A stretch of DNA of 64,000 nt from Bryobacteraceae bacterium. Lineage in GTDB: Bacteria > Acidobacteriota > Terriglobia > Bryobacterales > Bryobacteraceae. Of this stretch, positions 978 to 52,742 are shown piece by piece (position 1 is the first letter of the stretch; every line of letters starts with the position of its first letter). The position numbers were made by a program, and so were the translations under genes. The stretch lies in contig JBKQPR010000214.1 of NCBI GenBank assembly GCA_052144935.1, positions 5,731 to 69,730 of the forward strand, given 5' to 3'. Below the pieces are notes generated by a model. It was given only the letters and a program-made list of their open reading frames with translations. It had not been told where the DNA came from and made no database searches.

Positions 978-2047
978 CCGGGTCCGGCTCCGGGTCCGGC
1001 CCCATCCTCATCACCGGCGCGCTCGGCTGGCTGGGAAAGCGCCTCACCCGGCTCCTGGCCGAAGGCCAGTACAACTTCCTGCTCGGCGGCCGGCCTGAGA
1101 TCCGCTGTCTGCTGCTGCCCGGACAGGATGCCAGCGAACTCCGCTCCCTGGTTCCAACAGGACACGCGCCGCATGTGGAGGTTGTCGCGGGCGACCTGCG
1201 CTATCCCCAGGACTGCGCGCGTTTTCTTGCGAACAGCGCCGGCGCCCTGCTCCTCCACACCGCCGGCATCATCCATCCGCGGCGAGTCCGGGAGTTCTAC
1301 GAGGTTAACGTGCAGGGCGCCATCAACCTGCTGGCCGCCGCTCGCAAAGCGCACGTGCGGAGGGCGGTGATGGTCTCCTCCAATTCGCCGCTCGGCTGCA
1401 ATCCGCACCCCGATCACCTCTTCGACGAGAGTTCCCCCTATCACCCCTATATGAACTATGGCCGCTCGAAAATGCGGATGGAGCAGGCCGCTATGGCCGC
1501 CTCCCCAGCCGGCGGCCTGGAAACCGTGATTGTCCGCCCGCCGTGGTTCTACGGACCCGATCAGCCGCCCCGCCAGACGCTCTTCTTCCGGATGGTGAAG
1601 GGTGGCAAGGCCCCGCTGGTGGGCCGCGGCGAAAACCTGCGCTCCATGGTATACGTGGACAACCTCATCCAGGGCCTGCTGCTGGCCGCCACGCACGCTG
1701 CCGCCGCCGGACAAATCTACTGGATCGCCGACCGCCGGCCCTACGCCATGCGCGAGATTATCGACACCATCGAACGTCTGCTGGAAGAGGAGTTCAGCAT
1801 TCCCGTGGCCCACCGCCGCCTGCGAATGCCGGGTTTCGCGAGCACCGTGGCCGAAGCCGCCGACGCGGTCATCCAGGCGGCCGGCCTGTACCACCAGAAG
1901 ATCCACGTGCTTTCCGAGATGAACAAGACCATCGCCTGCTCCATCCAAAAGGCCGAGCGCGAGCTGGGCTACCGGCCGCAAGTGGCCCTGGAGGAAGGCA
2001 TGCGGCGCAGCATCCGATGGTGCTTGGAAAGGGGCATCGCCATCTGA
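974..2047 (+). CDS. NAD-dependent epimerase/dehydratase (extended SDR)
   Basis: The internal ATG at 974 of ORF 179..2047 gives MTGSGSGSGPILITGALGWLGKRL (Rossmann GxxGxxG) and YGRSK (YxxxK). The upstream part of the long ORF overlaps the GMC gene in another frame and is discarded. Confidence 0.85.
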   Translation: MTGSGSGSGPILITGALGWLGKRLTRLLAEGQYNFLLGGRPEIRCLLLPGQDASELRSLVPTGHAPHVEVVAGDLRYPQDCARFLANSAGALLLHTAGIIHPRRVREFYEVNVQGAINLLAAARKAHVRRAVMVSSNSPLGCNPHPDHLFDESSPYHPYMNYGRSKMRMEQAAMAASPAGGLETVIVRPPWFYGPDQPPRQTLFFRMVKGGKAPLVGRGENLRSMVYVDNLIQGLLLAATHAAAAGQIYWIADRRPYAMREIIDTIERLLEEEFSIPVAHRRLRMPGFASTVAEAADAVIQAAGLYHQKIHVLSEMNKTIACSIQKAERELGYRPQVALEEGMRRSIRWCLERGIAI

Positions 2048-2057
2048 ACAAAACCTC

Positions 2058-2101
2058 GCGCGGCCACAGGGTCGCAGGTTCGATCCCTACCTGGGGAGCC
2101 A
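2058..2101 (+). other. tRNA 3'-half remnant (T-arm, acceptor 3' strand, CCA); not an intact tRNA
   Basis: GGTCGCAGGTTCGATCCCTACCTGGGGAGCCA has T-loop TTCGATC flanked by GCAGG/CCTAC (one C-A mismatch), a 7-nt acceptor strand CTGGGGA, discriminator G and CCA. There is no complementary 5' acceptor strand or D/anticodon arms upstream; that DNA is the end of the epimerase CDS. Confidence 0.5.
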
Positions 2102-2341
2102 GCAAAATCGGTCTTTCAAACGTGAGCTTTATGGGCCACCCCAATTCAACACTCGAACCGGCCCGCATCGCCAGCAGTTTCGACAAACGCGGTTCCTGGA
2201 CCGTATTAGACCGTTATGCCCGCTCAAACGAGAATTCCGTTCTCCTTGTGCGTGCGGCCGAGGAGCGGGGCACTCTGTCTTCTGCCTCCTGACTTCTGGC
2301 TTCCATATCCCGCGGGGATATCAAGGCGGAGCCTTGGCTAG

Positions 2342-3151
2342 TTAGGATTGATGCTCTCCCACCTTGACGAGGCCGCTCGTCACGCACTTGCTCATGATGT
2401 TGCGGAAGCGGGTGCGGCTGATCTGGTGATCGGCCAGCAACCGGCCGTTGTAAATCAGCGCAAAAATCGCGTAAGGGGTTGGCGCACTCTGGGCATCGCT
2501 CCACGACTCGAGATCGACCACCGTGGGCCTGACACCGTACTCACTCTCCGCCGCTTCAATGATTTCAGCCGCGAATTTCGCGATGTGTGGACACTGGTTT
2601 GAGCGGATGATGGTCAAGCCCCGGCTGTACTGCCCGAGTTTCCGATCCCAACCTTTCTTGAAGGCCGGGTTTACGGCGCCACTATCGAACTTCCGAACGA
2701 GCAATTGGTAGTCCGGCGGCGCGGTATCGACGGGTTCGAAACCGTTTGCCAGGAACAGGCGGCGGTCGGCCAGCCATGGACCGTCCCGGACCATCACGGC
2801 GGCGCCGCGCATGCCGGCCTTTCTCGCATCATCCAAGCAGCCTTCGACCATGATGCTCCCCCAGCCCTTTCGCTGATGCTGCTTGGAGAAAATCCAAACG
2901 CAGTGAATAAACATGAAGCCAGCGGCTTCTACACCGCGCCATGCAAACTCGCCCGGAAGGTATTCAATGTAGCCGCTCGGTTGTCCGTCCGGGGCCAGAA
3001 GCATCTTAGCCCGCAGACCGAACCTGGCGTTCGCTTGCAGCCAGCAGTGCTTCTGCTGGCGGCCAGGATGAGTGGGGCTCTTTATCCCGCAACAGGGCAG
3101 TGTGTCGAAGCTCGCCGCATCGACATCGATCAAGCGAGGCTCGCGTATCAA
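2342..3151 (-). CDS. GNAT N-acetyltransferase with C-terminal YoaP-like domain
   Basis: ORF of 269 aa. The central part has a GNAT-like core (HCVWIFSKQHQRKGWGSIMVEGCLDDARKAG). The C-terminal part (NQCPHIAKFAAEIIE...PTPYAIFALIYNGRLLADHQIS) resembles the YoaP-like domain. Confidence 0.7.
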   Translation of the reverse strand: MIREPRLIDVDAASFDTLPCCGIKSPTHPGRQQKHCWLQANARFGLRAKMLLAPDGQPSGYIEYLPGEFAWRGVEAAGFMFIHCVWIFSKQHQRKGWGSIMVEGCLDDARKAGMRGAAVMVRDGPWLADRRLFLANGFEPVDTAPPDYQLLVRKFDSGAVNPAFKKGWDRKLGQYSRGLTIIRSNQCPHIAKFAAEIIEAAESEYGVRPTVVDLESWSDAQSAPTPYAIFALIYNGRLLADHQISRTRFRNIMSKCVTSGLVKVGEHQS

Positions 3152-3542
3152 TGGAGACCGATCCTTGTTTTGTCACCTCCAGTCTACTCCTCTGCACCCG
3201 CGTTGGAAACGTGTCCAAGGGCAGGTGGGGCCCGGAATGGACACGCGCCGGCATTCCCCGCCAACTATTATTGGCGGATTTGCGCGTGCATTGGTTCGGT
3301 CCCAACCTAAGTTGGTCCGGGCAAGTTCGAAACGTGTCCAGACTGGGGAGCCCCATCTGACATCCTGGGCATTATGGGACGCGGGATCGCGCCTGTCTGG
3401 CTTTTCAGTGCCGCCCACTGTGGTCAAAGTCCGCATCCGGGCATCTTCCGCAGAGCGATTATATAGTGATTCGAATCGGCTGATCCGCGTTCGCCGCGCG
3501 GCGGGCATTGATTCGCACCTCGTTTGCGCTACACTGTGGCAC

Positions 3543-3791
3543 ATGAGGAAAGCCTCGGTCCGTGAGCTGCATATCCACACTTCGGAGTTGGTGCGGGAGG
3601 CTGCGGAAGGCGGCGTTATCGTGATCGAACGCCGCGGTGAACCTGTCGCGGAGTTGCGCCCCATCACCGCTTCATCGCGCTTGCCTGCGAGCAAGAAGGC
3701 GCTCATCTTCGACTCCATGCAGGAAATGTGGGATCGCATGCCGCAAGCCGGCGACTGCACAAAGATCGTTGAAGAGGATCGCGACCGTTAG
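3543..3791 (+). CDS. Phd/YefM-type antitoxin
   Basis: The internal ATG at 3543 of ORF 3072..3791 gives MRKASVRELHIHTSELVREAAEGGVIVIERRGEPVAELRPI, a typical Phd/YefM N-terminus. It lies 6 nt upstream of a PIN-domain reading frame. Confidence 0.8.
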   Translation: MRKASVRELHIHTSELVREAAEGGVIVIERRGEPVAELRPITASSRLPASKKALIFDSMQEMWDRMPQAGDCTKIVEEDRDR

Positions 3792-3797
3792 GCCACC

Positions 3798-4165
3798 GTG
3801 TATCTCGACACGTCCTATATCGCAAAATTCTATTTCAATGAACCCGGATCTCCCAGGGTTCGCGAACTTGTCCGTGAAGCGGATGCCCTTTATTCGTCCT
3901 TGTGGGCCTTGGCCGAATTTCACGCCGTAATTCATCGCCGGGTTCGTGAAGGCGCATCCTCACCCAGTGACGCATGGGATCTTGCTTCCCGCTTCTGCGA
4001 ACACGTAGCCGAGGGGCCGTGGAACCTCATTCCAGCCCACGAACCACCGCCGACGCCGTGCACTTGGCGACGGCGTACGAGATTGGGGAACGCGACGTGT
4101 GGACCAACGACCGCCACATGCTCGCAGCCGCTTCGTACTTCGGCGTGACGGGCCGGTCGGTCTAG
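3798..4165 (+). pseudogene. vapC: VapC (PIN-domain) toxin, disrupted by internal deletion/frameshift
   Basis: The N-terminal PIN part (GTG start, YLDTSYIAKFYF...LAEFHAV) is in the frame of ORF 3798..4148. The C-terminal PIN part (TADAVHLATAYEIGERDVWTNDRHMLAAA) is in the frame of ORF 3974..4165. The junction is near 4030-4045, and roughly 20-25 residues normally found between the two parts appear to be missing. Confidence 0.75.
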
Positions 4166-4195
4166 CTGCTGCCCCACGCGTTATTGTGAGGAGAG

Positions 4196-5218
4196 ATGAA
4201 GCACCTGATCACCGGAGGCAGCGGATTTCTGGGAAATCTGATCGCCCGCCGCCTGCTGGCCAGCGGCGAACAAGTCCGCAGCCTGGACATCTGGGAAGAT
4301 CCGTCCAGGCCCCCGGAAATCGACTTTGTGCGTTGCGATGTTCGCGATGCCGCCGGCGTGGGCCAGGCCTTGCGGGGCATCGACATCGTCCACCACAACG
4401 CCGCGCTGGTGCCGCTGACCAAATCCGGCAAGGACTTCGCCCGCGTCAATATCGATGGCTCCCGTATTGTCGCCGAACAGGCCGCCGGCCGCGTCCGGGC
4501 GTTCATCCACATGAGTTCGTCGGCGGTCTACGGCAGCCCCGCCTGCCCCATCACTGCGGAGACGCCCTATCGCCCCATAGAGATCTATGGCCGCGCCAAA
4601 CTGGCCGGTGAGCTGGCCGTGCGCGAGGTCTGCGAAAAACACGGCACGGCGCTCACGGTGATCCGCCCGCGGACCATCCTCGGCCCGGGCCGCCTGGGCA
4701 TCTTTCAGATTCTGTTTGAGTGGATCGCCGCCGGGCAGAACATCTTCGTCATTGGCGACGGCAACGTGAAATTTCAATTCGTGCATGCCGGCGATCTGAT
4801 CGACGCCTACATGCTGGCCCTGCGCCTGGGCAAGCCCGGCATCTACAATGTCGGCGCCGCACGCTTTGGAACTCTCCGCGAAGCGCTGGAGAACCTAGTC
4901 TGTCATGCTCACAGCACCTCGCGAGTGCGATCCCTACCCGCCGGCCCGGCCATCCGGACGCTGCGCGCGCTCGACTTCCTGGGCCTGTCGCCGCTGGCTC
5001 CGTGGCATTATCTGACCTATCACAAACCCTTCTACTTCGACGTTAACGCGCTCCTCCAACTGGGTTGGCGGCCCAGGTATTCCAACGACGACATGTTCCG
5101 GGAAAGCTACGATTGGTTCCTGGCGAACCGGCGCGCCGCCGGCGCCGCTAAGGATGGGTCGCCGCATCGCCGCCGCGTCCGCGAAGGCGTGCTCTGGCTG
5201 CTGAAAAAGATCGCCTGA
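4196..5218 (+). CDS. NAD-dependent epimerase/dehydratase (SDR, 3-beta-HSD-like)
   Basis: MKHLITGGSGFLGNLIARRL (GxxGxxG), YGRAK (YxxxK), and a good SD (GAGGAGAG) upstream of the ATG. Confidence 0.85.
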   Translation: MKHLITGGSGFLGNLIARRLLASGEQVRSLDIWEDPSRPPEIDFVRCDVRDAAGVGQALRGIDIVHHNAALVPLTKSGKDFARVNIDGSRIVAEQAAGRVRAFIHMSSSAVYGSPACPITAETPYRPIEIYGRAKLAGELAVREVCEKHGTALTVIRPRTILGPGRLGIFQILFEWIAAGQNIFVIGDGNVKFQFVHAGDLIDAYMLALRLGKPGIYNVGAARFGTLREALENLVCHAHSTSRVRSLPAGPAIRTLRALDFLGLSPLAPWHYLTYHKPFYFDVNALLQLGWRPRYSNDDMFRESYDWFLANRRAAGAAKDGSPHRRRVREGVLWLLKKIA

Positions 5219-5261: not shown

Positions 5262-6377
5262 TTATCGACTCTTCCATAACTTCTGCGCCGGCACGAATAG
5301 AACCGCCACGGCGCACAGCGAGGCGGCCATCAACATCACGAAAGTGCGCACCCGCGAAGTCACCCGCTTCAGCCGGGAAGACTCGGGCAAAGCGCTATCC
5401 AGGGCCGCCAGCCCATAGAAGCCCGCCTGCCCGCACCAGGCGATCGCCCGCCACGGATCGGGCAGCCCGAACGACGTTCCAGCCGCCACCAGCAAGGCCC
5501 ATGGCATGAGGAGCCGGGCTAGCTTATGCGAAAAGAAATGGAGCCACATGCGGTTCCCCGGCCCCAACAGAGCGGGATAGAAACCGACGATCTGGTAGAC
5601 CCCCGCCAGCGTCCTGATTTTGCGGCGAAACTCCGAGCTCAGGTTGGTCGGATCGTCGAAAGCCTTGGCCGAGTCGTCGAGAATCACGCGGTATCCCCGG
5701 AAGAACGCGGCCAGGGGAAGGTACATATCGTCGGCCAGAGTTTGCGCTGGTAATGGCCTGGCCAGGTCCTGCCGCATGGCGTAAATGCAGCCCGTCGCCC
5801 CTATTACCGAATCCAGCCGGCTTTGCCGTGTGCGAATCCACTTTTCGTAGCGCCAGTACAGGCCTACGCCCGCTTCGCCGCTGGTCTGGCCCTTCCGGAT
5901 CACCAGTTCCCCGCTGGCAACTCCCACCGCCGGGTCCGCAAAACAAGCCACCAGATTTCGCAGGCTGTCACGGCTCAATTCCTGCCGGACGTCCGTGAAA
6001 AACAGGATTTCCCCGCAGGCTGCCTCGATCGCCCGGTTCAATGCCAGCGCCTTGCCTCCCGCCGGAACTTTCAGCAACCGGACGCCTCGGCGCCCCGCAT
6101 ACCCTTCCACGATGCATTCGGTGGCGTCGGTGGAACCGTCGGAAACCACCAGGATCTCGATCAAATCCATGGGATAATTTAGAGCCAGTAGCGATTCCAG
6201 TTTCTGGGCAACCCACCGCTCTCCGTTGCGCACCGGCAGAATCACGGACACGCTGCGCGGCGCGAACGCCTTTTTCACTGGCCTGGCTCGCCGTGCCAGC
6301 AACGCCAACAGCAGCGGATATCCGAACATTGTGTAGAAGCAAAATGCGGCAGCCAGCAGAAATAAAGCGTTCATCAT
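5262..6377 (-). CDS. Family 2 glycosyltransferase, membrane-associated
   Basis: N-terminal TM helix, then VSVILPVRNGERWV...ILVVSDGSTDAT...GGKALALNRAIEAACGEILFFTDVRQ (GT-A fold, DxD-type region), and C-terminal TM helices. Confidence 0.85.
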   Translation of the reverse strand: MMNALFLLAAAFCFYTMFGYPLLLALLARRARPVKKAFAPRSVSVILPVRNGERWVAQKLESLLALNYPMDLIEILVVSDGSTDATECIVEGYAGRRGVRLLKVPAGGKALALNRAIEAACGEILFFTDVRQELSRDSLRNLVACFADPAVGVASGELVIRKGQTSGEAGVGLYWRYEKWIRTRQSRLDSVIGATGCIYAMRQDLARPLPAQTLADDMYLPLAAFFRGYRVILDDSAKAFDDPTNLSSEFRRKIRTLAGVYQIVGFYPALLGPGNRMWLHFFSHKLARLLMPWALLVAAGTSFGLPDPWRAIAWCGQAGFYGLAALDSALPESSRLKRVTSRVRTFVMLMAASLCAVAVLFVPAQKLWKSR

Positions 6378-6609
6378 CGCCGTAGATCAGCAGTGGGTAG
6401 GGCAGGGGAATCGGCCAACCGCCGCTAGACCTGCCGCGCCGGCGCCGGATTCGGCATATGGTACACGAGGAGATGTAGCGTTTGGTCCACTGGATTCTCA
6501 ATTGTCAGGAACTTTACCGGGCTTTGTCAATCAGCTCATGCCTTGTCCAGTTGTCGCTTTAAGGCTCTCCAAGTGGAGCCGTATGAAGCCGGGTTACCGC
6601 CAAAAACCA

Positions 6610-6975
6610 GGTGTAGGTCCGTGGAAAATCCTGATTCCTTCCGCCAGCTTTCCCGACCTCGCTAGGTGTAGTAGTGTGGAAATTGGTGTAGTTGCGTGGA
6701 AGAAATCCGCCTCTTTCACCTATTATGGGTATGTTTTAGTACCTTTTAAATACACTGTTCCCTTCAGACCCGTTGAATCAAGAGAGATTCCGGTGCCACA
6801 AATACTGCTAGAATCCAACTCGTTCCAGCAGTGTAGTTTAGGGGAAGGGAAGTGTAGTTGCCTGGAAATCCGGTGTAGTTCCACGGAAGTCAGGTGAAGA
6901 CACGTGGAAAGTTGGTGTAGGTCGCTGGAACAGAAAGTGAAGGCATGTGGAACAAAAGGTGTAGATCCGTGGAAC
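6610..6975 (+). repeat. Iteron array (ten direct 18-bp repeats, consensus RGTGTAG-N5-TGGAAN)
   Basis: Copies start at 6610, 6665, 6685, 6830, 6851, 6872, 6893, 6914, 6936 and 6958. Examples: GGTGTAGGTCCGTGGAAA, GGTGTAGTTGCGTGGAAG, GGTGTAGATCCGTGGAAC. The last seven are contiguous with 21-22 bp spacing. Confidence 0.85.
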
Positions 6976-7088
6976 TAAAATGCTGCTAAGCGATTTGTTT
7001 TCATGCTCTTATGGAATGCCAAAGGTTTTTACAGTTTAGTTCATAGTACACTACAGCAACTTCCATACGTAAGGATTCCCTCAATCCC
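6976..7088 (+). promoter_or_regulatory. AT-rich tract between iterons and rep start (candidate DNA-unwinding element / rep promoter-operator)
   Basis: Visibly AT-rich compared with the rest of the window (TAAAATGCTGCTAAGCGATTTGTTTTCATGCTCTTATGGAATGCCAAAGGTTTTTACAGTTTAGTTCATAG...). It contains an inverted iteron-junction-like sequence at 7051-7066 (reverse complement ATGGAAGTTGCTGTAG). Confidence 0.4.
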
Positions 7089-8561
7089 GTGACTGACCAG
7101 CCCGCCACCGGCACTTTCCCTGTTGTTATTGAACACGTCGATTTAGTTCGCGTCGAAAAGAGCCTGCATTCGCTGGGCTTCTTTGCATCCACGGCCAATC
7201 GCGAGATCTCTCGAACCGTTGTGCAGATCTTTCGCCGTCCCGACGGCCAGCGCATTCACGCTAAGGCCGTGATTGAAGGCATTCCTAGCCTTGGTTTGCC
7301 CACCACTGCCGACCGCGACAAGTATATGGCCTTCATGAAGTTCGCACTAGACCGGCGCGAAATTCAGGGACATCTCACGAACCCCATCCGCTTCAGTGGA
7401 GCCGACATGATTAAACTTCTCCGTCTCCGCAAGGGTGGCTTTCACTACGACGAGATTAACGACTGGTGCAAGCGCATGGTGGCCACCACAATCATGTCGG
7501 AAGCCTCCATTTTTCTCGCGGACCGGAGGCAATATGCCACCGACACTTTCCACGTCTTCGACCGAGTCGTGCTGGTGGGAGAGGAACTTAACGACGGCAC
7601 CCGCTCCGAGTTCTACCAGGTTTACCTCTCCGAGTGGCAACTCACCAATCTCAACCAGGGCTACTTGCTGCCCCTCGATTTCAACGCCTACCTGCGGCTG
7701 CATCGCGATATTGCCAAGGCCCTCTTTGGCCAACTCAGTGTTTGGTTCTATGCCAGCCGCGGCCAGGCTGTGGAGAAAAAGTATCAGGATCTCTGCCAAC
7801 TGCTCAACATTCGCGCCTACCCACATCTTTCCAAAGCCCGCTCGGTCCTGGAACCTTCGCTCGACGAACTCATGGAAATCGGTTATCTCTCCAGTTGGGA
7901 CCTTGTCCGCACGGCCCGTGGCGCCGACTTTAAGCTTGAGCTCGCGCCTGGCAAACGGCTTCTGTCACTGCCGAATTTTGCCAGTGTAGTTAACCCCGAC
8001 GCCCGCGCCGTGCTCGAAGCCGGCATGCCTGCCTGGGTGGGCGAACTGCTGACACGTGGTGTAGTTGAAAGGAAAGCCCGCCAGTTGGCGCTGGACATCC
8101 CCGACGATCAACCTGTCTTCGATCAGATCGAATACGCCGAGTATCTAATCCAGCAGGACCGCCGCGGCCGCGGCAAAATCTCCAACCCGGCCGGCTTCTA
8201 CATCTGGGCTATCGAAAACAACCTCTCGGTTCCGGCGAATTTCGAAACCTCCCGCTCGCGCCGCACGCGCACGGAACAAAATGCCAGCATGGTCGAACTC
8301 AACAATGCCTACGATGAGTTTTGCCAGCAACAGATTTCCAAAAAACTGGAAGCCGACTATCCGCAGGACCGCTTAGACTCGACGCTTCGCGAGCACATGA
8401 AATCCATCAAACGCGAACAGCCGGAGTGGTTTGCACGGGTTCCCGAAAGCACCCGCCGCGAGGTTGCCATGAGCCGCCTGAAAGCCGCCATTCGCGAGCA
8501 CCTGGCCCTGCCCAGTTTCGAACGCTGGCACAAACAGATGCTGCAAGAACGCCTGTTCTGA
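7089..8561 (+). CDS. Plasmid-type replication initiator (Rep/RPA-like), iteron-associated
   Basis: 490-aa ORF (GTG start) directly downstream of the iteron array and AT-rich tract. The N-terminal region (VDLVRVEKSLHSLGFFASTANREISRTV...GLPTTADRDKYMAFMKF) resembles the replication initiator protein A family from memory. The gene looks less GC-rich than its neighbours. The family assignment is unverified. Confidence 0.6.
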   Translation: MTDQPATGTFPVVIEHVDLVRVEKSLHSLGFFASTANREISRTVVQIFRRPDGQRIHAKAVIEGIPSLGLPTTADRDKYMAFMKFALDRREIQGHLTNPIRFSGADMIKLLRLRKGGFHYDEINDWCKRMVATTIMSEASIFLADRRQYATDTFHVFDRVVLVGEELNDGTRSEFYQVYLSEWQLTNLNQGYLLPLDFNAYLRLHRDIAKALFGQLSVWFYASRGQAVEKKYQDLCQLLNIRAYPHLSKARSVLEPSLDELMEIGYLSSWDLVRTARGADFKLELAPGKRLLSLPNFASVVNPDARAVLEAGMPAWVGELLTRGVVERKARQLALDIPDDQPVFDQIEYAEYLIQQDRRGRGKISNPAGFYIWAIENNLSVPANFETSRSRRTRTEQNASMVELNNAYDEFCQQQISKKLEADYPQDRLDSTLREHMKSIKREQPEWFARVPESTRREVAMSRLKAAIREHLALPSFERWHKQMLQERLF

Positions 8562-8613
8562 CCGGGCCGGGATCCGAAGCCAAGTCCCGATACCCGACTT
8601 ATGCAGAACCGCA

Positions 8614-8631
8614 CTTCCACGTATCTACACC
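8614..8631 (-). repeat. Inverted iteron copy downstream of rep
   Basis: CTTCCACGTATCTACACC is the reverse complement of GGTGTAGATACGTGGAAG, a full match to the iteron consensus. It lies in the 79-bp gap after the rep stop. Confidence 0.7.
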
Positions 8632-14592: not shown

Positions 14593-15015
14593 TCACCCCT
14601 CCCAGGGATTGAGAACCGGTACGCCCGCCTTGTCGTAGTCGCTTCGATCCCTGGTCACCACCGTCAGGCCGTGGTGAAGAGCGGTCGCGGCGATGATCAG
14701 ATCAGGTTGGGAGTAGGTGTGTCCGGTTTTCCGGCCTTCTTCCAGCAGAACTCTCCACCTGAACATGATGTCCTCCGTAACCGGCAATACGCGCTGATCG
14801 AACATGGGACGGATCGTATGCGTAAGCCAGTGATCCAATTCCCCGTGGCGGGCGCTCCCCACGGTCAACAGGCCGATACCGAAGCGAAGCTCGGCCAGCG
14901 TGACGACGCTGACGTAAAGCTCGTCAAGGGGGTAACCGGCGGTGAACGCCAGCACCTTCGGCTCCGGCTTTAGCCGGCGTATTTCCGAAAGAATGTTCGT
15001 ATCCAGAAGCCACAT
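14593..15015 (-). CDS. vapC: PIN-domain toxin VapC/FitB-like
   Basis: MWLLDTNILSEI...TLAELRFG...IIAATALHHGLTVVTRDRSDY carries the conserved acidic PIN residues. The start overlaps the antitoxin stop. Confidence 0.85.
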   Translation of the reverse strand: MWLLDTNILSEIRRLKPEPKVLAFTAGYPLDELYVSVVTLAELRFGIGLLTVGSARHGELDHWLTHTIRPMFDQRVLPVTEDIMFRWRVLLEEGRKTGHTYSQPDLIIAATALHHGLTVVTRDRSDYDKAGVPVLNPWEG

Positions 15016-15275
15016 CAGAGCACAACGTCGCGCACCGGTAAAGGATAGCGAGCCGGCTCAATCTCCAGTTCCCGATCAGGCGAAGCCTGTAGGGCCGCAA
15101 TGAGGTCGGCTCCCGTGCGTTTATCGCGTGGCTTTCCAGGGGGTTCTTGGACCGTCGGCGAAGCCTTCAACGCCTGCATAAGAACGTCTTCGACGTTGTG
15201 GAACCCGCCGCTTTTCATGCGCTGGAGGATCAGGGCCTCAAGTTCGGGTCTGTGAATCTCAATGGTCATGGGCAA
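15015..15275 (-). CDS. VapB/FitA-like antitoxin
   Basis: 86-aa ORF immediately upstream of, and overlapping, the PIN toxin. C-terminal tail ...YPLPVRDVVL. Confidence 0.7.
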   Translation of the reverse strand: MPMTIEIHRPELEALILQRMKSGGFHNVEDVLMQALKASPTVQEPPGKPRDKRTGADLIAALQASPDRELEIEPARYPLPVRDVVL

Positions 15276-15523: not shown

Positions 15524-15872
15524 TCACTTCAACAAAGCGTCGACCCCGCTGTTTTAGCTTGGGGAAATCATCCCTGACGGTGGTCCACACTATTCCCAAA
15601 TCGACGGAGAATTACTCATGGATCGCTATGTTGCGCATCCCGCGCATTTGCGCCCATGGAATCTCTGGATGCTGTTTGATGAAGTCCGGGGCTGCTGGTG
15701 ATGTTGTTCACGGCCTCGCCGATGAACTCGATGTTCCGAACAACGGCATCCTGAACCCGCGGGTTCGTTTGAAAGGCTTCGAGATCCGGTACAGGCCGAA
15801 GTAGCCTGTCACTCGGTCAATCGCTTCGGCAATGTGTTCCAAATAGTCTTCGACACTCTCCGGATATTTCAT
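15524..15872 (-). pseudogene. HEPN (DUF86) toxin of a HEPN-MNT pair, decayed
   Basis: The minus-strand ATG at 15872 overlaps the MNT stop (ATGA). The DUF86-like sequence is spread over three frames: MKYPESVEDYLEHIAEAIDRV.. / ..DLEAFQTNPRVQDAVVRNIEFIGEAVNNI.. / ..FIKQHPEIPWAQMRGMRNIAIHE*FSVDLGIVWTTV.. / ..VDALLK*. There is an in-frame TAA where the conserved Tyr after the R-x4-H motif is expected. No intact ORF appears in the track. Confidence 0.75.
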
Positions 15873-16159
15873 AGGGGCCGCGGCTGTCCCAGCACCTCGT
15901 CGCGGAACTTCGGCGGCAAGCTGTTCGGAGTTAAAAACGACACCGGCACGCCAGGCAATTTCTCGACGTCGCTCTTCAAACCGGCAATCGTAAGCAGGCT
16001 GGTGGATTGTCCAGGTTCAACGAGCAGGTCAAGATCGCTCTCATCCGTGTCCGTTCCGCTGAGGACTGACCCAAAGACGCGGGGGCGAGAGAGGCCGTAA
16101 CGGCTGACAAGCAGCCGCAATTCGCTGCCGTGGGCTGTGAGGGCTTCCGAGGGTTTCAT
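15869..16159 (-). CDS. MNT-type nucleotidyltransferase antitoxin
   Basis: VFGSVLSGTDTDESDLDLLVE is the GS-x10-DxD nucleotidyltransferase motif. Confidence 0.85.
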   Translation of the reverse strand: MKPSEALTAHGSELRLLVSRYGLSRPRVFGSVLSGTDTDESDLDLLVEPGQSTSLLTIAGLKSDVEKLPGVPVSFLTPNSLPPKFRDEVLGQPRPL

Positions 16160-28894: not shown

Positions 28895-29335
28895 GTGCTA
28901 GTCGATACCAGCGTTCTTGCTCGCACCTTGCAGCCTCATCATTCGCTCTATGCCCTGACTGACCGGGCTATCGAGCGTCTTTTGGCGCAGGGCCGGGAAC
29001 TGCATATCGTTGCTCAAAACCTCATAGAGTTGTGGGTTGTGGCTACCCGGCCTCTGGAACAAAACGGCCTTGCCATGACGCCGGCCGCCGCCGCTCGGGA
29101 GCTGGCGCGCATCAAGAGCATGTTCGAATTCCTGCCGGAGACCCCCGCCATCTATCCGATATGGGAGGGCCTGGTCACCCAGCACAACGTATCCGGCAAG
29201 CCGGCGCACGATGCGCGCCTGGTGGCCGCCATGCAGGCGCATGGCCTCGCCAGCATTCTGACTTTCGATGCGGGCGGTTTTTCTCGCTATGCCGGCATCG
29301 AGGTCGTGCACCCCGCCGCCGTCGCCTCCTCATGA
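28895..29335 (+). CDS. vapC: PIN-domain toxin VapC
   Basis: GTG start; LVDTSVLART...NLIELWVVATRP...HDARLVAAMQAHGLASILTFDAGGF. Confidence 0.85.
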   Translation: MLVDTSVLARTLQPHHSLYALTDRAIERLLAQGRELHIVAQNLIELWVVATRPLEQNGLAMTPAAAARELARIKSMFEFLPETPAIYPIWEGLVTQHNVSGKPAHDARLVAAMQAHGLASILTFDAGGFSRYAGIEVVHPAAVASS

Positions 29336-29453: not shown

Positions 29454-29479
29454 GAGCCGTACTATTGGAGGATCGCCGT

Positions 29480-29782
29480 ATGCCGACCCGGAACGTCAAT
29501 CTGACCGAACACTTCGACCGCTTCATCGAGGCCGGCGTCACTTCTGGCCGCTTCAGCAACGCCAGCGAAGTGGTGCGGGAAGGCCTCCGGCTATTAGAGC
29601 AGCGCGAGCAGGAAGACAAGGCCAAACTTGAATGGCTCCGCGCCGCCGCTAAGGAAGGCTTCGATCAGCTCGACCGCGGCGAGGGCATCGAATTTGAATC
29701 GATGGACGACTTCGACGCCTATATCGACCGGATCGGAGAGGAAGCCTCCGCCGAGATAGCCGTCGAGCGCAAGCGTGGCTGA
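29480..29782 (+). CDS. parD: ParD-family (RHH) antitoxin
   Basis: The internal ATG at 29480 (SD GGAGG) gives MPTRNVNLTEHFDRFIEAGVTSGRFSNASEVVREGLRLLEQRE, a classic ParD4-type sequence. Confidence 0.85.
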   Translation: MPTRNVNLTEHFDRFIEAGVTSGRFSNASEVVREGLRLLEQREQEDKAKLEWLRAAAKEGFDQLDRGEGIEFESMDDFDAYIDRIGEEASAEIAVERKRG

Positions 29783-37288: not shown

Positions 37289-37531
37289 ATGAACGCAGCT
37301 ATTTACGAAAAGGTACGCAGCATCGCCGCGGACATGCTGCAAGTGAAGATCGCAACCCTCAAGGCGGATTCCTCCCCCGAAACTGTGGACACCTGGGACT
37401 CCGTCCACCATCTCAACCTGGTTCTGGCGCTGGAGGAGTCCTTCGGCTTCCAGTTCTCCCCCGAAGAGATGGACCAGATGAAAACCATCGGCCAGATCGC
37501 CGGGATGGTGGAAACCAAGACCGGCTCCTGA
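37289..37531 (+). CDS. Acyl carrier protein
   Basis: 80 aa with TVDTWDSVHHLNLVLALE. The stop overlaps the next start. Confidence 0.8.
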   Translation: MNAAIYEKVRSIAADMLQVKIATLKADSSPETVDTWDSVHHLNLVLALEESFGFQFSPEEMDQMKTIGQIAGMVETKTGS

Positions 37532-38598
37532 TGGCCATCGAGATCGTTCCGTACCTGCCCGCCCATGGGGCCGCGGTGCGGCGCTTCCACGAGCGCCTGG
37601 CCGCCGTGGGCGCCGACCCGGACATGCGGTTTCCCGAACCCTCCGACTCCGGTTGGATGCCAGGCACGCAGCTCTGGCTTGCCGTGGAGGGCGACGAGGT
37701 ACGCGGCGGCTATATCCTGCGGCGCCAGACTTTTTCCTTCGGCGGCGAGACTCACCAGGTAGCCCACTACCGGCTGCCGCTTTCCGAAGGCTTGGTGAAT
37801 CGCGCCTATGCTCTGCTGGCCGTCCGCCTGGTTCGCGACGCGTTGAATCGCGAAGCCGAGCTGTACGCTCTCGGCATGGGCGGATGGGAGAAGCCGCTGC
37901 CCGAAATGCTGAAGCGCCTGAACTGGCGTATGGCGGCGGTTCCGTTCTACTTCAAGGCGCCGCATCCCTACCGCTTCCTGCGTCAGATCCGCGCCCTGCG
38001 ATCGTCCGCTTTCGGGCGCCTGGCTTGCGATGCGGCCGCCTTCAGCGGAGCCGGTTGGCTGGCGCTGTGGCTTGCCGGGGTTGCCCGCCGCACTAGCGGG
38101 CCAGCGCCGCTCGAAGCTCCGGCATCCTTCGCCGGCTGGGCCGATGCCGTATGGGAACGCTGCCGCACTCGCTACGCCATGGCCGCGGTGCGCGACGCCG
38201 CCACCCTCGACCGGCTCTATCCGCCGTCCGATCCGCGCTTCCTGCGCGTCCGCGCCGCCGGGGGCTGGGCCGTGCTTCTGGACACCGCCATGCACGGCCA
38301 CAAGCAGTTCGGCGATCTCCGGGTGGGCACGATTGTGGATTCGCTCGCGCCGCCCGAAGACGCCGCCGTGGTGGTCCTCGCCGCGGCCCGGACCCTGGAA
38401 GAGCGCGGCGTGGATCTGATCGTTTCCAACCAACTACACCACGCCTGGTCGAGCGCCTTGCCCAAAGCCGGCTTTCGCCAGGCCCCCACGAATTTTCTGA
38501 TCGCGATCTCTCCGGTCCTGGCCGCGCGGATCGAAGGCCGCGCGGACCTAGAGATCCATATGAACCGCGGCGATGGGGACGGGCCGATTCATCTGTAG
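37531..38598 (+). CDS. Two-domain GNAT/FemAB-like acyltransferase (putative)
   Basis: 355 aa, translationally coupled to the ACP. It has the same size and overall layout as the protein at 55755..56819. The family call is tentative. Confidence 0.5.
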   Translation: MAIEIVPYLPAHGAAVRRFHERLAAVGADPDMRFPEPSDSGWMPGTQLWLAVEGDEVRGGYILRRQTFSFGGETHQVAHYRLPLSEGLVNRAYALLAVRLVRDALNREAELYALGMGGWEKPLPEMLKRLNWRMAAVPFYFKAPHPYRFLRQIRALRSSAFGRLACDAAAFSGAGWLALWLAGVARRTSGPAPLEAPASFAGWADAVWERCRTRYAMAAVRDAATLDRLYPPSDPRFLRVRAAGGWAVLLDTAMHGHKQFGDLRVGTIVDSLAPPEDAAVVVLAAARTLEERGVDLIVSNQLHHAWSSALPKAGFRQAPTNFLIAISPVLAARIEGRADLEIHMNRGDGDGPIHL

Positions 38599-39211: not shown

Positions 39212-39595
39212 TCATGAACCCGGCGGCTTGTAGGCGACGCCCAGATCTTTCGCTATGACGGCGAAATGTTGGTCGGCCGTCCACAACTGCAAGCGCTCCG
39301 CCAGGGCGGAGGCGAGCCGGTGAACGTCGATCCAGCCGACGCCGCGCCCATGCAGGTTCCGATGGCGAACGAACGCGACAACCTCGTGGTGGGGAACCAT
39401 GCTCGCCTGATGCATTCGCTCATAGGTGGACAGGAACTTACTGCGGCCTCCACGATCGCCGATGAGGAGTTCGCCGTAGACCAATTCATGTCCGGCCACA
39501 TTGTCGAGATTCAGGAGTCTCTCAAGTTCGTTTGCGTATGGATCCTGGTCGAAGAAATACCGAATCCACACGGACGTATCGATCAGAATCATCAA
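39212..39595 (-). CDS. vapC: PIN-domain toxin VapC
   Basis: MILIDTSVWIRYF...VYGELLIG...WIDVHRLASALAERLQLWTADQHF. Confidence 0.85.
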   Translation of the reverse strand: MMILIDTSVWIRYFFDQDPYANELERLLNLDNVAGHELVYGELLIGDRGGRSKFLSTYERMHQASMVPHHEVVAFVRHRNLHGRGVGWIDVHRLASALAERLQLWTADQHFAVIAKDLGVAYKPPGS

Positions 39596-42643: not shown

Positions 42644-44248
42644 TCAATCAAGCGGTGTGTGCGAGCGGTTGGCGTCCAGCCAGCGCGCCGCCCCTGGCGC
42701 ATCGGTCACCTCCTGGCGCAACACGGCCAGCAGCAGATCCTGAATCAGGACGGTATTGAAGGGAGCCTCGTATGAAAGTCCCTGATGCTGCCCGGCCAGC
42801 TTGAAAAAGAAGGGAATCCGCGGATCGAACTTGTCGTGAATCAACTCCGCCTCGCGATATGGATGATCGGTTGTGATCAGCACGCTGGTATCGTCCCACG
42901 TGCGGGCGCTTTCCATGGATTGGCGCAACTCGCCCAACGTCCGGTCGAGCAGCGCCAGGCTGTCGATGTAGCCCTTCACGGGAGAATTCGACAGGTCGAA
43001 GCGGCCAGTCTGGCGGTTATACCCAAAGGGCGCGTGCGGCACCGGGAGATGCACGTAGGTGAACTGGAACTGCGGGTTGTTGACGGTCGCTTTGGCGGCC
43101 GCCACGACGCTGCGATAGGTCGCTATGTGCTGCTTCAGCGACAAAGACTGGCCGAACGGGGAAAGCAGGGTGGTTTCGAAAAGGCTCTCGGCCTCACCGG
43201 AGAGGGCGGCCCGGAAGGTGCGGCCCATGCTGTTGTGTTGCATGGCCATCTCCCACCATTCGCAGGAGACCAGGTCATTCCGGAACAGGCCGCAGTAGGG
43301 GTGGAACCAACCTACCACGGCGGTATTCAGCCCCAGGGCGCGCGCTCTGCCAAAGACGTTCGGCTCCCGGGTCAGAGAGAACCAGGAACGATTCGCGTCG
43401 CGGTAGCGTATCTCCAGGTGGTACGGTCCCTTGTAAGAAACCTCGTCTACGAGCCTCCCGGTAACGTAACCCGGTATGGAAATAGGAGTTTCCGGTCCGG
43501 GCGGGTGCGCGTTGGAGGCAAACAGCGTTTCTCCGCGCAGGCGGTCGATCTGAGGTAATGACAGGGAGGGATCGCGGTCCTCGAAAGTCAGTGAGTAGTC
43601 CCACTCATCGCAAATGATCCACAGAACCCGGGGCAATTCACGGGCGGTGGGAATAGGCGGCGCCAGCCTTACCCGGAACTCGGAATCGTCGTAATGCACC
43701 GCCTTCCAGACCGCCTGCCCAAAGGTCAGCGGGACCAGCGGCAAAAAGAACGCCACCACTCCGGCGGCGATATGGGAGGCCGGGCGATAGTGCAAGGCAA
43801 TCAGCCAAACCACCACGGCGCCCAAGGCAATGGCGATCAGCAGGACTCCGCGCGGGCCCACCAGCTCGAACAGAGGCGAGCGCAGGTATTTGAACTCGAC
43901 GGAAAGGACCGAGCGAATAGCGTTCAAAGGCACCGCCAGCGACACCAGAAATGCCATCCGCACCCAGCGGAACCAGGAGGGCGACAGATAGCGCCGGGCG
44001 GCCGTTACCGCCACCCAGAGAACCACGGCCCCGATTAACACGTCCGTGATCGCCGCGTAGTATACGGCGGGCGTGGGAGGCGTCTTCATGAGGTAGGTGT
44101 CCGCGCGGCCATACGTCAGGATTTCCGACCAGACCCTCAGGAAGGCGAGATTCACCAGGGAAAGCGCCACCGCCAGGTCGCGTTTGGGGGAGGTTTTGGA
44201 AGTCGTAGACCTGCCGTGAGCCTCTGACGCGGCCGCGGAAATACGCAT
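42644..44248 (-). CDS. Membrane-anchored alkaline-phosphatase-superfamily (sulfatase/LTA-synthase-like) protein
   Basis: N-terminal multi-TM region, then VLWIICDEWD, HLPVPHAPF and VLITTDHPY metal-site-like motifs. Confidence 0.65.
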   Translation of the reverse strand: MRISAAASEAHGRSTTSKTSPKRDLAVALSLVNLAFLRVWSEILTYGRADTYLMKTPPTPAVYYAAITDVLIGAVVLWVAVTAARRYLSPSWFRWVRMAFLVSLAVPLNAIRSVLSVEFKYLRSPLFELVGPRGVLLIAIALGAVVVWLIALHYRPASHIAAGVVAFFLPLVPLTFGQAVWKAVHYDDSEFRVRLAPPIPTARELPRVLWIICDEWDYSLTFEDRDPSLSLPQIDRLRGETLFASNAHPPGPETPISIPGYVTGRLVDEVSYKGPYHLEIRYRDANRSWFSLTREPNVFGRARALGLNTAVVGWFHPYCGLFRNDLVSCEWWEMAMQHNSMGRTFRAALSGEAESLFETTLLSPFGQSLSLKQHIATYRSVVAAAKATVNNPQFQFTYVHLPVPHAPFGYNRQTGRFDLSNSPVKGYIDSLALLDRTLGELRQSMESARTWDDTSVLITTDHPYREAELIHDKFDPRIPFFFKLAGQHQGLSYEAPFNTVLIQDLLLAVLRQEVTDAPGAARWLDANRSHTPLD

Positions 44249-50771: not shown

Positions 50772-52742
50772 TCAGAACTCCACGTTGCCGCCCTTCCAGG
50801 CGATCACGGTCTTACCCGCCTCCGTGCGCAGCGCGATGGCGCCGGGCGCGGGGTCGCCGGAAAGGTCCAGCACCGCGGCCATCTGCGTGGGCAATGGGCC
50901 GCGATAGGCCACCCGCAGAACCGGCGCCGGCTCCTTCGCCCCCAACGCTCGCGAGCGCCAGCCTGGCAGGCTCTCGGCGGGCGCTGTGAAGGCCAGCCGC
51001 GCGGCGTCTTCGGCTGCGCCAAGATGCCAGAATTGTTCCAGTAAGTGCTCCCCCCCGGTGCCGTCGATCGTGCCGTCCACGGTATCGAGCACGATCACAT
51101 AGCCGGGCTTCACAAACCGGATCCGCCGCCGGTGGGTGAAGCCGGCGTAAACGCAAGAGGCGTCCAGCCAGTCGGCTTCGGCGGAACTGGTCCATTCACG
51201 AATGGCCGTGGCCGGTTTTCCGTCCCAGCGGAAGGGCCCGGCCGGCAGCGCCTGGTCGCGCCCGTCAATGCGGACGGTGTTGTGGGCCGCCGAGCCGCGG
51301 TACCGGTTGCGCTCTGCTGGATCGGCCATGTAGGTGTAAGTGCCGGGATCGATCAGCACCTCGCGTGGGCCGATGCGCGCCACCAGGCTGAGCGAATCCG
51401 AATGGCTGTGGCCGGCCGATCCTTCTCCAAACGGCCCGGCCTTTACGACGATCTGCCGGTCGCCCGAGAGCATCACGGCCACGCCGGCGTCCGCAAACAG
51501 CCGCGATGATTGTGGGGCAGGCGATTCGCCTGCCAACGTTCCCACCCACCAGGCGGCCTGGCAAGCGGCTTGGTACGCGCCATCCTCCGGGCCCAGAGGG
51601 CGCCCCCCCGCCCACTCCGACCGGCCGAACAGCGCCGCGCAGGTGGCCAGCGTGGCGCGCCCAAACTGCGTCCGCTCCCCGTAAGGATGAAAGACCCGCC
51701 CGCCATCGTCATCGCCCAGATACGGCAATATCCCCGAAGGTCCCAGCAAGGCCTGCAGGTATTCCGCCATCGCTTGCAACCGCGCGTCGTACACTGCGTT
51801 GTGCCCCTCGGGCGTCTGGGCCAGCGCGCGATGCAGCAGGAAGAAATCGAGCGCGTAGACGTGATAGTAAGCCGATTGCTCGAAATGGCTGCCATCCGGC
51901 CGCACCTGCCGCTCGATCTGCTCGCGCACAATCCGTCCGCCGCTGGCCGTCCAGTGGCTGGCGCGAGGCCAGGCGGGAAACAGCGCGCCCAGAGCGTGCA
52001 AGGCCACCGCTTCGCCCAGCAAATGGGTGTTCGGAGAGAAGTAGACGGAAAGATTCCGCTCCAGAAAGCAGCCGTGGCGGTATAGTTCCGTCTGGAAGCG
52101 GCGCGCCAGCGGTTGCGGCATGAAGTCTCCGGCCAGCAGCCACAGCCACGTCCACGAGAGCGCGCGGAAGCCCACTTCCAAAGCGCTGGCCCAGTTGATG
52201 CCGCGCAGGAACGGGTTCGCATCCAGCCAGGATTCCAGTTGGCGGAAGGCCTCCTCCAGAAACGCGCGCTCGCCGGTGAAGCGGAAGGCCTGCGCCAGCA
52301 GCACAAGCTGTTGATGCCGGTTCAGCTCCCAAATCAGCTTGTGATCGCCCACGCGCGCGAAGTCCAGATACGGGGAGCGGCGGAAATAAGGCGTTCCGGA
52401 GGAAATGCCGTGCACATAATCGCGGCGCCAGTCGATTTGGTCCCCCGTTTCAATCTCGATCCCCAGCAGCGGGAAGCGGTGGCGCAGCATACCGCGGGCC
52501 AGCGCTTCCACTTCACGGGCAAAGGTGGTGCCCCGCAGACGGGCCGCGGTTTCCACGGGATCGGGGAACGTGGCGCAGGCACTCATGCCGACGCCTGGCT
52601 TCGCGAACTGGTGTCGAGACGAGTCTCGACACGGCAGGCTGAGAGCCTGCGCCACATCGCCTAACGCGGGAGGATGGGCCAGCATGGCCAGGTTGGCGGC
52701 CTCTTGGCGGATGCGGAACCAGATTTCGCGGCGGCTACGCAC
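50772..52742 (-). CDS. Heparinase II/III-family protein (alginate-lyase-like N-domain)
   Basis: HKLIWELNRHQQLVLLAQAF, NWASALEVGFRALSW, HSHSDSLS and AAHNTVRIDG segments are typical of the family. Confidence 0.85.
   Translation of the reverse strand: MRSRREIWFRIRQEAANLAMLAHPPALGDVAQALSLPCRDSSRHQFAKPGVGMSACATFPDPVETAARLRGTTFAREVEALARGMLRHRFPLLGIEIETGDQIDWRRDYVHGISSGTPYFRRSPYLDFARVGDHKLIWELNRHQQLVLLAQAFRFTGERAFLEEAFRQLESWLDANPFLRGINWASALEVGFRALSWTWLWLLAGDFMPQPLARRFQTELYRHGCFLERNLSVYFSPNTHLLGEAVALHALGALFPAWPRASHWTASGGRIVREQIERQVRPDGSHFEQSAYYHVYALDFFLLHRALAQTPEGHNAVYDARLQAMAEYLQALLGPSGILPYLGDDDGGRVFHPYGERTQFGRATLATCAALFGRSEWAGGRPLGPEDGAYQAACQAAWWVGTLAGESPAPQSSRLFADAGVAVMLSGDRQIVVKAGPFGEGSAGHSHSDSLSLVARIGPREVLIDPGTYTYMADPAERNRYRGSAAHNTVRIDGRDQALPAGPFRWDGKPATAIREWTSSAEADWLDASCVYAGFTHRRRIRFVKPGYVIVLDTVDGTIDGTGGEHLLEQFWHLGAAEDAARLAFTAPAESLPGWRSRALGAKEPAPVLRVAYRGPLPTQMAAVLDLSGDPAPGAIALRTEAGKTVIAWKGGNVEF

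Follow-up and report, generated by a model that had tools for sequence, protein, structure and literature searches.

Positions 6610–8631 of a 64,000-nucleotide stretch of DNA from a Bryobacteraceae bacterium (contig JBKQPR010000214.1; the whole stretch is called the window below) very probably form the replication module of a large, theta-replicating replicon of plasmid type belonging to an uncultured soil bacterium of the Bryobacterales (Acidobacteriota). The module consists of direct repeats (iterons), an AT-rich tract and rep, a gene for a 490-aa protein, a combination that an earlier examination of the letters alone (the sequence-only reading) had taken for the origin of an iteron-type theta plasmid. 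Our analysis supports that proposal: Rep matches the RPA family of replication initiators, its predicted fold resembles those of RctB and RepE, phased iterons accompany its homologues on plasmids, and the layout of the module is conserved among related loci.

Phased iterons upstream of rep

The repeats are non-random. We scanned both strands of the whole window with the pattern RGTGWAG-N6-GGAA and obtained 13 matches, against 0.08 expected from 100 dinucleotide-preserving shuffles, none of which contained more than one match. Ten of the 13, all on the plus strand upstream of rep, are the direct repeats that the sequence-only reading had described, and every one of them was recovered; the spacings between their starts (Table 1) are 55, 20, 145, 21, 21, 21, 21, 22 and 22 bp. 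As that reading had also observed, the last seven are contiguous, following one another in steps of 21–22 bp, or about two helical turns. We presume that this proximal block is the array on which Rep monomers are loaded. The three additional matches lie within rep (plus strand), shortly after its stop codon (minus strand) and at a distant site (minus strand); the distant one may bind Rep or may match by chance.

A weight matrix built from 221 iteron copies gave the consensus RGTGTAG-TTCCGT-GGAAA, in which GTGTAG and GG(A)A are near-invariant and the spacers are variable. The centres of the two half-sites are about 11 bp apart, a distance that fits the geometry of RepE on its iteron, where two winged-helix domains occupy successive major grooves (PMC4980987). 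An open reading frame (ORF) that runs across the array (6502–6897), already suspected in the sequence-only reading of being non-coding, was ruled out as a gene because its GC content is flat over the three codon positions (0.48/0.49/0.48, in contrast to 0.63/0.40/0.69 for rep) and because it has never been called in public assemblies.

Rep is an RPA-family protein with a predicted winged-helix fold

The 490-aa ORF following the array is present as described, and public assemblies contain it as well (Table 1). Of the initiator families in which the sequence-only reading had suggested looking for it, one was found and two were not. Rep matched the Pfam family RPA (PF10134, replication initiator protein A) over aa 42–213 with 34.9 bits (E 1.5e-8), above the curated gathering threshold of 27 bits, whereas neither Rep_3 (PF01051) nor TrfA (PF07042) was matched at E ≤0.1. 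NCBIfam gave no meaningful match for Rep, and no Pfam family matched aa 295–490. All 28 diverse relatives matched RPA (best E 5e-20), and PF10134 is precomputed in all but one of the 240 homologues listed by two homologue searches. TrfA was matched by 7 of the 28 relatives at E ≤0.1, over the same N-terminal region as RPA; of those itemised, only two Rubrobacter proteins (25.8 and 23.2 bits) lie above the 22-bit TrfA cut-off. Rep3_N, the first winged-helix domain (WH1), was matched over that same region by a single relative of the 28, at 21.3 bits, which is below its cut-off. The Rubrobacter relatives match RPA, TrfA and Rep3_N on one and the same region. Because the TrfA and Rep3_N matches coincide with the RPA region, they tie the family to the winged-helix initiators. 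The family is large, since an exhaustive HMMER search returned 1,614 clusters (50% identity) at E ≤1e-3. We also observed that the Rubrobacter initiators, which are annotated as TrfA (L056:1438-2886 and L057:1471-2874), belong to the RPA family and carry a DnaA_N domain at their C-terminal end (aa 398–461, E 5.8e-8), of which there is no detectable counterpart in the window's Rep.

Searches of PDB sequences with phmmer or with a 28-sequence family profile did not match any initiator, and RctB chains were absent at E ≤10. A first AlphaFold model, based on 41 close homologues, had a pLDDT (predicted local distance difference test) of 64.8 and a poor N-terminal part, and ranked RepE first, weakly; the final model, based on an 85-sequence alignment after a second homologue search, had a mean pLDDT of 83.4. 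In the Foldseek comparison with the PDB, ranks 1–3 were taken by domains 2–3 of RctB (5tbf and 5ubf; E 2.7e-9 to 2e-8, template-modelling (TM) score 0.51–0.60 over about 300 columns) and ranks 4–29 by RepE, including its complexes with iteron DNA and with single-stranded DNA of the DNA-unwinding element (DUE) (E from 2.5e-4, TM 0.52–0.60). The top 29 had probabilities of 0.99–1.0, and everything from rank 30 onward (≤0.33) was noise. Together with the RPA match above the cut-off, the predicted fold upholds the view that this ORF resembles known initiators. In the model, Rep has tandem winged-helix domains (WH1–WH2): a β-hairpin (aa 41–63) is followed by a WH1-like domain with an enlarged sheet, extending to about aa 190, and by a canonical WH2 (aa 207–287). 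The predicted remainder of the protein comprises a helical module (aa 315–385), conserved throughout the family ('RGV..A..LA...NPAGF..W'), and a long helical or coiled C-terminal region. In comparisons with eleven relatives, the ratio of nonsynonymous to synonymous substitutions (dN/dS) of rep was 0.04–0.18, at a proportion of synonymous differences (pS) of 0.6–0.77, indicating that the gene is under strong purifying selection.

The layout is conserved in the Bryobacterales

We collected 43 related loci from public genomes; metagenomes contain hundreds of further homologues. The loci whose Rep is 63–98% identical to that of the window belong to Bryobacterales, Bryobacteraceae, Solibacteraceae or Paludibaculum metagenome-assembled genomes (MAGs), and every one of them has the window's iteron motif directly upstream of rep. 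About 26 Bryobacterales loci share one layout: two to four distal iterons, six or seven proximal iterons at 21–22 bp, and an AT-rich tract. The proximal block ends 117–193 bp before rep, and the distal block is found in most of these loci. Around rep, flanking synteny is lost past the closest relatives; parA adjoins rep in many relatives, and in L060 it lies directly upstream. The window is 100% identical to contigs of several independent assemblies (L004, L049–L053).

When Rep was compared by tblastn with the 72,556 plasmids of PLSDB, 14 records were matched, plasmids of 25–476 kb, and all 14 matches fell on genes annotated as replication initiator protein A or TrfA on circular plasmids. The best of them were full-length, with 36–38% identity, and lay on the Acidobacteriaceae megaplasmids pACPOL4, pACIX901 and pACPOL2; weaker ones lay on plasmids of Planctomycetota, Candidatus Manganitrophus (Nitrospirota) and Rubrobacter. 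A megablast comparison of positions 1–25000 of the window with PLSDB gave no match. All clades that we examined, with representatives on complete plasmids from five phyla, have direct repeats ahead of rep that are phased at 21–23 bp. Other Acidobacteriota have the iteron halves CCGTAG..GCGTAAA and TCGTTCC..GCGTAAA, and the three finished megaplasmids have CCGCAG..TTGGAAA, CCGAACCCGGCTGGAAA and AGAGAGGT..GCTGGCA. In Rubrobacter the halves are TACCGGGC..GGGGGATAG, at 23-bp spacing, and in Planctomyces CACCGATA..GGGGAGGAAG. The Manganitrophus iteron is TTGGCATAGCAAGGAAG. The 5′ half differs from clade to clade and the 3′ half is purine-rich throughout, a pattern that would fit co-evolution of Rep with its predicted binding site.

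Some copies of rep are irregular. The frame is interrupted in three long-read or MAG contigs (L024:6001-7471, L028:5965-6225 and L031:3867-4571), probably by assembly frameshifts, with pseudogenes as another possibility; in L024 the ORF stops at 301 aa and tblastn aligns all 490 aa with 98% identity. A second, 149-kb contig of the same MAG (L047) contains at 6049–6120 a rep remnant, a 23-residue fragment identical to aa 107–129 of Rep (MIKLLRLRKGGFHYDEINDWCKR) that runs into unrelated sequence and is situated between a cytochrome-c-peroxidase-like gene and a Ser/Thr kinase gene.

The AT-rich tract next to the proximal iterons

The stretch of AT-rich DNA after the array, which the sequence-only reading had put at about 110 bp, measures 113 bp and has a GC content of 38%, compared with 62% for the window. 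Of all 100-bp stretches in the 64 kb, 6973–7072 has the lowest GC content (35%), and the second-lowest, 6667–6766, falls between the two iteron blocks. An A+T-rich element adjoining the iterons is therefore present by composition, and it recurs across 26 loci, where the tract after the iterons has a mean GC content of 0.34, versus 0.59. Its core is conserved in 16 loci, roughly as CTATAGGTTTTTAnAGTTTGTTTCATAGTAT-TCTACAGCAAC. An inverted, half-iteron-like CTACAGC at 7051–7057 is conserved too, and no full palindrome was found around it. On the strength of composition and conservation, 6976–7088 is a candidate DUE, a candidate rep promoter with leader, or both. A promoter/terminator scan did not find any terminator.

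The spacer between the two iteron blocks was rejected as a conserved unwinding element, as its sequence, length and composition are unconserved in the relatives (mean GC 0.54). It follows that the tract flagged by the sequence-only reading is the one under selection. In the window's own lineage, where the spacer is AT-rich, it may offer a second candidate unwinding region.

Additional iterons within and after rep

The plus-strand iteron within rep is found across relatives at about +918 to +978 of the gene, where it encodes a conserved G-V-x-E-R-K. The site uses the rare codons GGT, GTA and AGG (background frequencies 0.18, 0.12 and 0.06, respectively); GGT and GTA are each retained in 15 of 21 lineages and AGG in 13. 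Their retention, even though synonymous sites are near saturation between the lineages (pS as above), indicates that the intragenic iteron is under selection at the level of the DNA sequence itself. The iteron after the stop codon of rep sits in a 79-bp gap between rep and a convergent LPG-synthase-like gene. In 14 of the 26 loci (15 if L026 is included), a minus-strand iteron lies between +1461 and +1527, counted from the start of rep, whatever gene follows. Both sites, the intragenic one and the one past the stop codon, are present in many, not all, of the roughly 26 related loci.

In L027, rep is followed by a tandem array of seven near-identical units of 129 bp (7650–8520), each with one iteron (CAGTGTAGGTCAGTGGAAAAT). 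These units correspond in position to the copy-control arrays incA of P1 and incC of F, but they could be an artefact of long-read assembly.

Table 1. Features of the replication module and related sites (coordinates are positions in the window; PWM, position weight matrix)
Feature	Coordinates	Strand	Remarks
Distal iteron block, 3 copies	6610–6703	+	Starts 6610, 6665, 6685; GGTGTAG-N6-GGAA; PWM 24.6–30.6 bits
Spacer between iteron blocks	6704–6829		43% GC; 40-bp minimum of 28% at 6712–6751
Proximal iteron block, 7 copies	6830–6976	+	Starts 6830, 6851, 6872, 6893, 6914, 6936, 6958; phased at 21–22 bp
AT-rich tract	6976–7088		Conserved core at about 7017–7060 (GCCAAAGGTTTTTACAGTTTAGTTCATAGTACACTACAGCAAC); periodicity of about 12 nt, TAG/AG-TTT
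rep, 490-aa RPA-family initiator	7089–8561	+	GTG start; PF10134 match; same coordinates in public gene calls
Intragenic iteron (GGTGTAGTTGAAAGGAAAG)	8058–8076	+	Encodes G324-V-V-E-R-K; found by motif scan and PWM
Inverted iteron	8613–8631	−	52 bp past the rep stop codon; 25.8 bits
Isolated iteron-like site (GGTGTAGTTGGTTGGAAAC)	38422–38440	−	20.7 bits; in the unannotated ORF 37531–38598, 31 kb from the origin

A model for initiation

By analogy with RepE, π, TrfA and RctB, Rep monomers would bind the ten direct iterons. Each iteron offers two half-sites, GTGTAG and GGAA, whose separation would suit two winged-helix domains, and the seven proximal copies would align monomers on one face of the helix and bend or distort the DNA. 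The adjacent AT-rich tract would then melt, the best candidate being the conserved segment 6976–7062 and the alternative the lineage-specific 6704–6829; the TAG-TTT periodicity of the tract recalls the 13-mers of oriC and of RK2 oriV. Rep proteins bind one strand of the DUE (PMC4081077, PMC10602881). Recruitment of the host helicase and replisome would come next, and we found no evidence for assistance by DnaA. The iterons at 8058 and 8613 bracket rep and may serve as extra Rep-binding sites, most likely for control of copy number or expression through looping or handcuffing; they would be analogous to incC of F and incA of P1, arrays of iterons that follow repE and repA, respectively, and titrate or handcuff the initiator. 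Within the same replicon, toxin–antitoxin (TA) pairs would provide stability functions and polysaccharide genes would be cargo.

The module is embedded in exopolysaccharide genes

Pfam scans showed that the window contains glycan and exopolysaccharide (EPS) genes together with at least four PIN toxins and with ParD/Phd-type antitoxins. The EPS genes encode glycosyltransferases of families GT2 and GT4, epimerases, DegT, a flippase, MBOAT proteins, deacetylases, heparinase II/III, sulfatase-fold proteins and AsnB, and the cluster extends at least 9 kb past the upstream end of the window and at least 8 kb past its downstream end. The window sequence probably lies in a 123,350-bp public contig, with rep at about 38.6 kb. 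No chromosomal marker was seen in the window: its scans found no tRNA and no Rfam family, and the Pfam scans no dnaA.

The sequence-only reading had described an origin inside a polysaccharide locus. Origin and EPS genes are indeed located together; however, related rep loci recur in contexts of glycosyltransferase and TA genes (L062 and L063), and pPfer1, a plasmid of the cultured Bryobacterales strain Paludibaculum fermentans P105, is itself an EPS plasmid. For these reasons the polysaccharide genes are best read as cargo carried on a large replicon of plasmid type and not as part of a chromosome into which an origin has moved.

Several neighbouring genes deserve mention. PIN toxins are encoded at 14593–15015 (with an antitoxin at 15015–15269), 28895–29335 and 39212–39595, a ParD at 29465–29782, a Phd-like protein at 3237–3791 and a nucleotidyltransferase at 15869–16159; in L062, five PIN pairs in a row adjoin rep. 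A unit that spans the window start (12–2047, and 6718–11074 of L049) encodes a UbiA-family prenyltransferase–HAD fusion, a small protein, a GMC oxidoreductase and an SDR epimerase, and presumably resembles a sugar-donor module of the decaprenyl-phosphoryl-arabinose (DprE1/DprE2-like) type. Between 42644 and 52742 lie genes for two sulfatase-fold proteins (42644–44248 and 46473–48719), an FkbM methyltransferase and a heparinase II/III-like protein (50772–52742), which hint at a modified or sulfated polysaccharide.

Weighing the alternatives

Several observations weigh against an active origin on a plasmid-type replicon. No DnaA box (TTATCCACA) was found at ≤1 mismatch in 6300–7150, and two-mismatch matches occurred only where they overlapped iterons or lay within the GT2 gene. 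Consensus searches revealed neither a site for integration host factor (IHF) nor, on the plus strand, a σ70-like promoter for rep. There was no inversion of GC skew at the origin site, which is weak or uninformative evidence, as most theta plasmids replicate in one direction and their skew is weak (PMC7858055). The conserved AT-rich element separates the iterons from rep, a position in which it may act chiefly as promoter or operator instead of unwinding the DNA, and the regulatory and unwinding roles are inseparable because the tract must also hold the rep promoter. Partition genes, which the sequence-only reading had thought worth looking for, were not found near rep: no ParA-type Walker A motif (KGGxGK[ST] or P-loop) occurred in the six frames of the 64 kb, tblastn with acidobacterial ParA returned nothing in the window, and Pfam scans of 44 window ORFs did not detect parB, a relaxase or a type IV secretion system. 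Finally, a few genes that may be of housekeeping type occur close to rep on related contigs or just beyond the window, namely one for EF-P in L062 and a NadE-like gene downstream in L053; with such neighbours, the replicon could be a chromid or even chromosomal.

A chromid, that is, an essential and vertically inherited secondary replicon driven by the RPA/iteron module, would be a sub-case of the plasmid-type replicon, and we regard it as unlikely. Consistent with it, the Rep clade is spread over many Bryobacterales genera with 63–98% identity on contigs of 100–585 kb, rep resembles its neighbour genes in GC content and codon bias, and its best structural match is RctB, a chromid initiator. 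The EF-P and NadE-like genes on related contigs also point this way, but they may be paralogues. Against it, synteny around rep is lost past the closest relatives, the 64 kb contain no rRNA, tRNA or core informational genes, and the genome paper on P. fermentans, whose genome is finished, reports one chromosome and the 55-kb pPfer1 only, without an RPA gene.

It is improbable, in our judgement, that the module is an integrated plasmid or a secondary plasmid-type origin, intact within a chromosomal EPS island and either silent or occasionally used. The missing parAB, relaxase and secretion genes and the uninverted skew would agree with integration, as would the presence of related rep genes on contigs of up to 585 kb, and the remnant in L047 shows that recombination can leave such genes behind. 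However, the ORFs scanned, from about −9 kb to +72 kb, included no integrase, and no tRNA or att-like boundary was seen there. A silent origin would not keep rep at a dN/dS of 0.04–0.18, six or seven phased iterons and an intragenic iteron written in rare codons across lineages with saturated synonymous sites. Furthermore, all homologues on finished replicons are carried by plasmids (the search covered a plasmid database only), and contigs with rep often end up in bins of unrelated phyla (Alphaproteobacteria, Solirubrobacterales, Chloroflexia), as is typical of plasmids.

It is highly improbable that the repeats are a transcription-factor operator array for rep, for the divergent GT2 gene or for both, devoid of origin function, or that the whole module is a decaying relic. 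The GT2 gene has a promoter-like site at 6530–6501, but the array follows rep while the upstream gene varies between loci, and in copy number, phasing and adjoining AT-rich tract it is like an iteron origin. Neither rep, which is intact and constrained, nor the arrays show decay.

Significance of a probable plasmid-type replicon

The architecture is that of a standard iteron theta replicon, and RPA genes with adjacent iterons are already known from planctomycete plasmids. What the present analysis adds is a widespread Bryobacterales replicon lineage that lacks a finished representative, the iteron consensus and conserved layout of that lineage, DNA-level selection on an iteron within rep, and a best structural match to RctB, not to RepE. 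A bolder picture, which we offer tentatively and as somewhat doubtful, is that of an order-wide, long-lived lineage of EPS megaplasmids or chromids, in which the iterons bracketing rep loop with the origin to set copy number, and in which no plasmid-borne protein is structurally closer to RctB than the RPA-type Rep, a hint at the sort of plasmid that gave rise to the initiator of Vibrio chromosome 2.

The minimal replicon of about 2.1 kb (6610–8631), with its clear iteron consensus, is a candidate for shuttle vectors. The module also marks contigs as plasmid-borne in soil metagenomes, where mis-binning is frequent, and suggests that in the Bryobacterales plasmid-type replicons are vehicles for large EPS clusters, which bear on soil aggregation and carbon storage. 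The intragenic iteron is a small, testable lead to how copy number is controlled, and the likeness to RctB is another to the ancestry of secondary-chromosome initiators.

Comparison with known systems

The RPA family was identified functionally in a plasmid of Tetrathiobacter kashmirensis by Dam et al. 2009, as cited in bioRxiv 10.1101/2024.01.22.576637. According to the same study, planctomycete plasmids have a low-GC region and tandem iterons adjoining rpa, and the iterons may lie upstream of, downstream of or within the gene. These RPA replicons (the planctomycete plasmids and pBTK445 of T. kashmirensis) share with the window an initiator in PF10134, and Planctomyces pPL62-3, like the window, has six to seven repeats phased at 22 bp upstream of rep. 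By contrast, Rep is only 18–23% identical, the iteron is CACCGATA-N5-GGGAGGAAG compared with GGTGTAG-N6-GGAA, and the planctomycete plasmids usually carry type I parAB, which is absent from the window.

The closest homologues on finished replicons, pACIX901 of Granulicella tundricola and pACPOL2 and pACPOL4 of Acidisarcina polymorpha (109–476 kb), have a Rep of the same length and domain order. Ahead of rep they have iterons phased at 22 bp, with TGGAA(A) or TGGCA at the end. They come from a different order, however; the 5′ halves of their iterons are CCGCAG, CCGAAC and AGAGAGG, none has the window's motif, and in two of the three, unlike in the window, a ParA gene lies within 2–3 kb of rep.

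Mini-F (RepE, ori2, incC) and P1 (RepA, incC, incA) share with the window the order of origin iterons, rep and downstream iterons. RepE accounts for 26 of the 29 top PDB structural matches of the window's Rep, and in replicons of the F/P1 type, iterons of about 19 bp are contacted by two winged-helix domains (PMC4980987, PMC10602881). The window's Rep nevertheless lacks detectable sequence similarity to RepE as well as a Rep_3 match, and it is twice the size, with a C-terminal extension of about 200 aa. The window also differs from F and P1 in having no DnaA boxes, in having one downstream and one intragenic iteron instead of an array, and in that its conserved AT-rich tract is on the rep side of the iterons.

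In oriV of RK2/RP4, phased iterons of the 17-bp class adjoin an AT-rich unwinding element made of repeated 13-mers (PMC4980987). The window likewise combines phased iterons with an AT-rich tract, and relatives of its Rep match TrfA weakly or are annotated as TrfA by NCBI. In RK2, however, trfA is not adjacent to oriV, which has four DnaA boxes, and the window's Rep itself does not match TrfA.

RctB, which acts at oriCII of Vibrio chromosome 2, resembles the predicted structure of the window's Rep in being a large, multi-domain initiator with extra domains around WH1–WH2 and an enlarged β-sheet in the first winged-helix domain (PMC5397143). Its sites are different, namely 11/12-mers with GATC, 29/39-mers and crtS, whereas the window's iterons are about 19-mers in which GATC is not consistent. 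There is no sequence similarity, the likeness is structural only, as judged from the model, and Rep is not a member of the RctB family. RctB has been stated to lack homologues outside the Vibrionaceae (PMC5397143), and none of the papers covered by our literature search connects RPA with RctB.

P. fermentans P105 carries the only plasmid known from a cultured strain of the Bryobacterales, pPfer1 (NZ_CP063850; L064 in our set; 55 kb), which is filled with EPS and glycan genes like the window (PMC8407742). These genes include wecB, EpsI, a flippase, an O-antigen ligase, glycosyltransferases, MBOAT proteins and deacetylases. The replication module of pPfer1, by contrast, consists of a DnaB-like helicase and a toprim protein (1984–4216) with ParA, and contains neither an RPA gene nor any match to Rep. 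Given this different module, at least two unrelated replication systems carry EPS clusters in the Bryobacterales.

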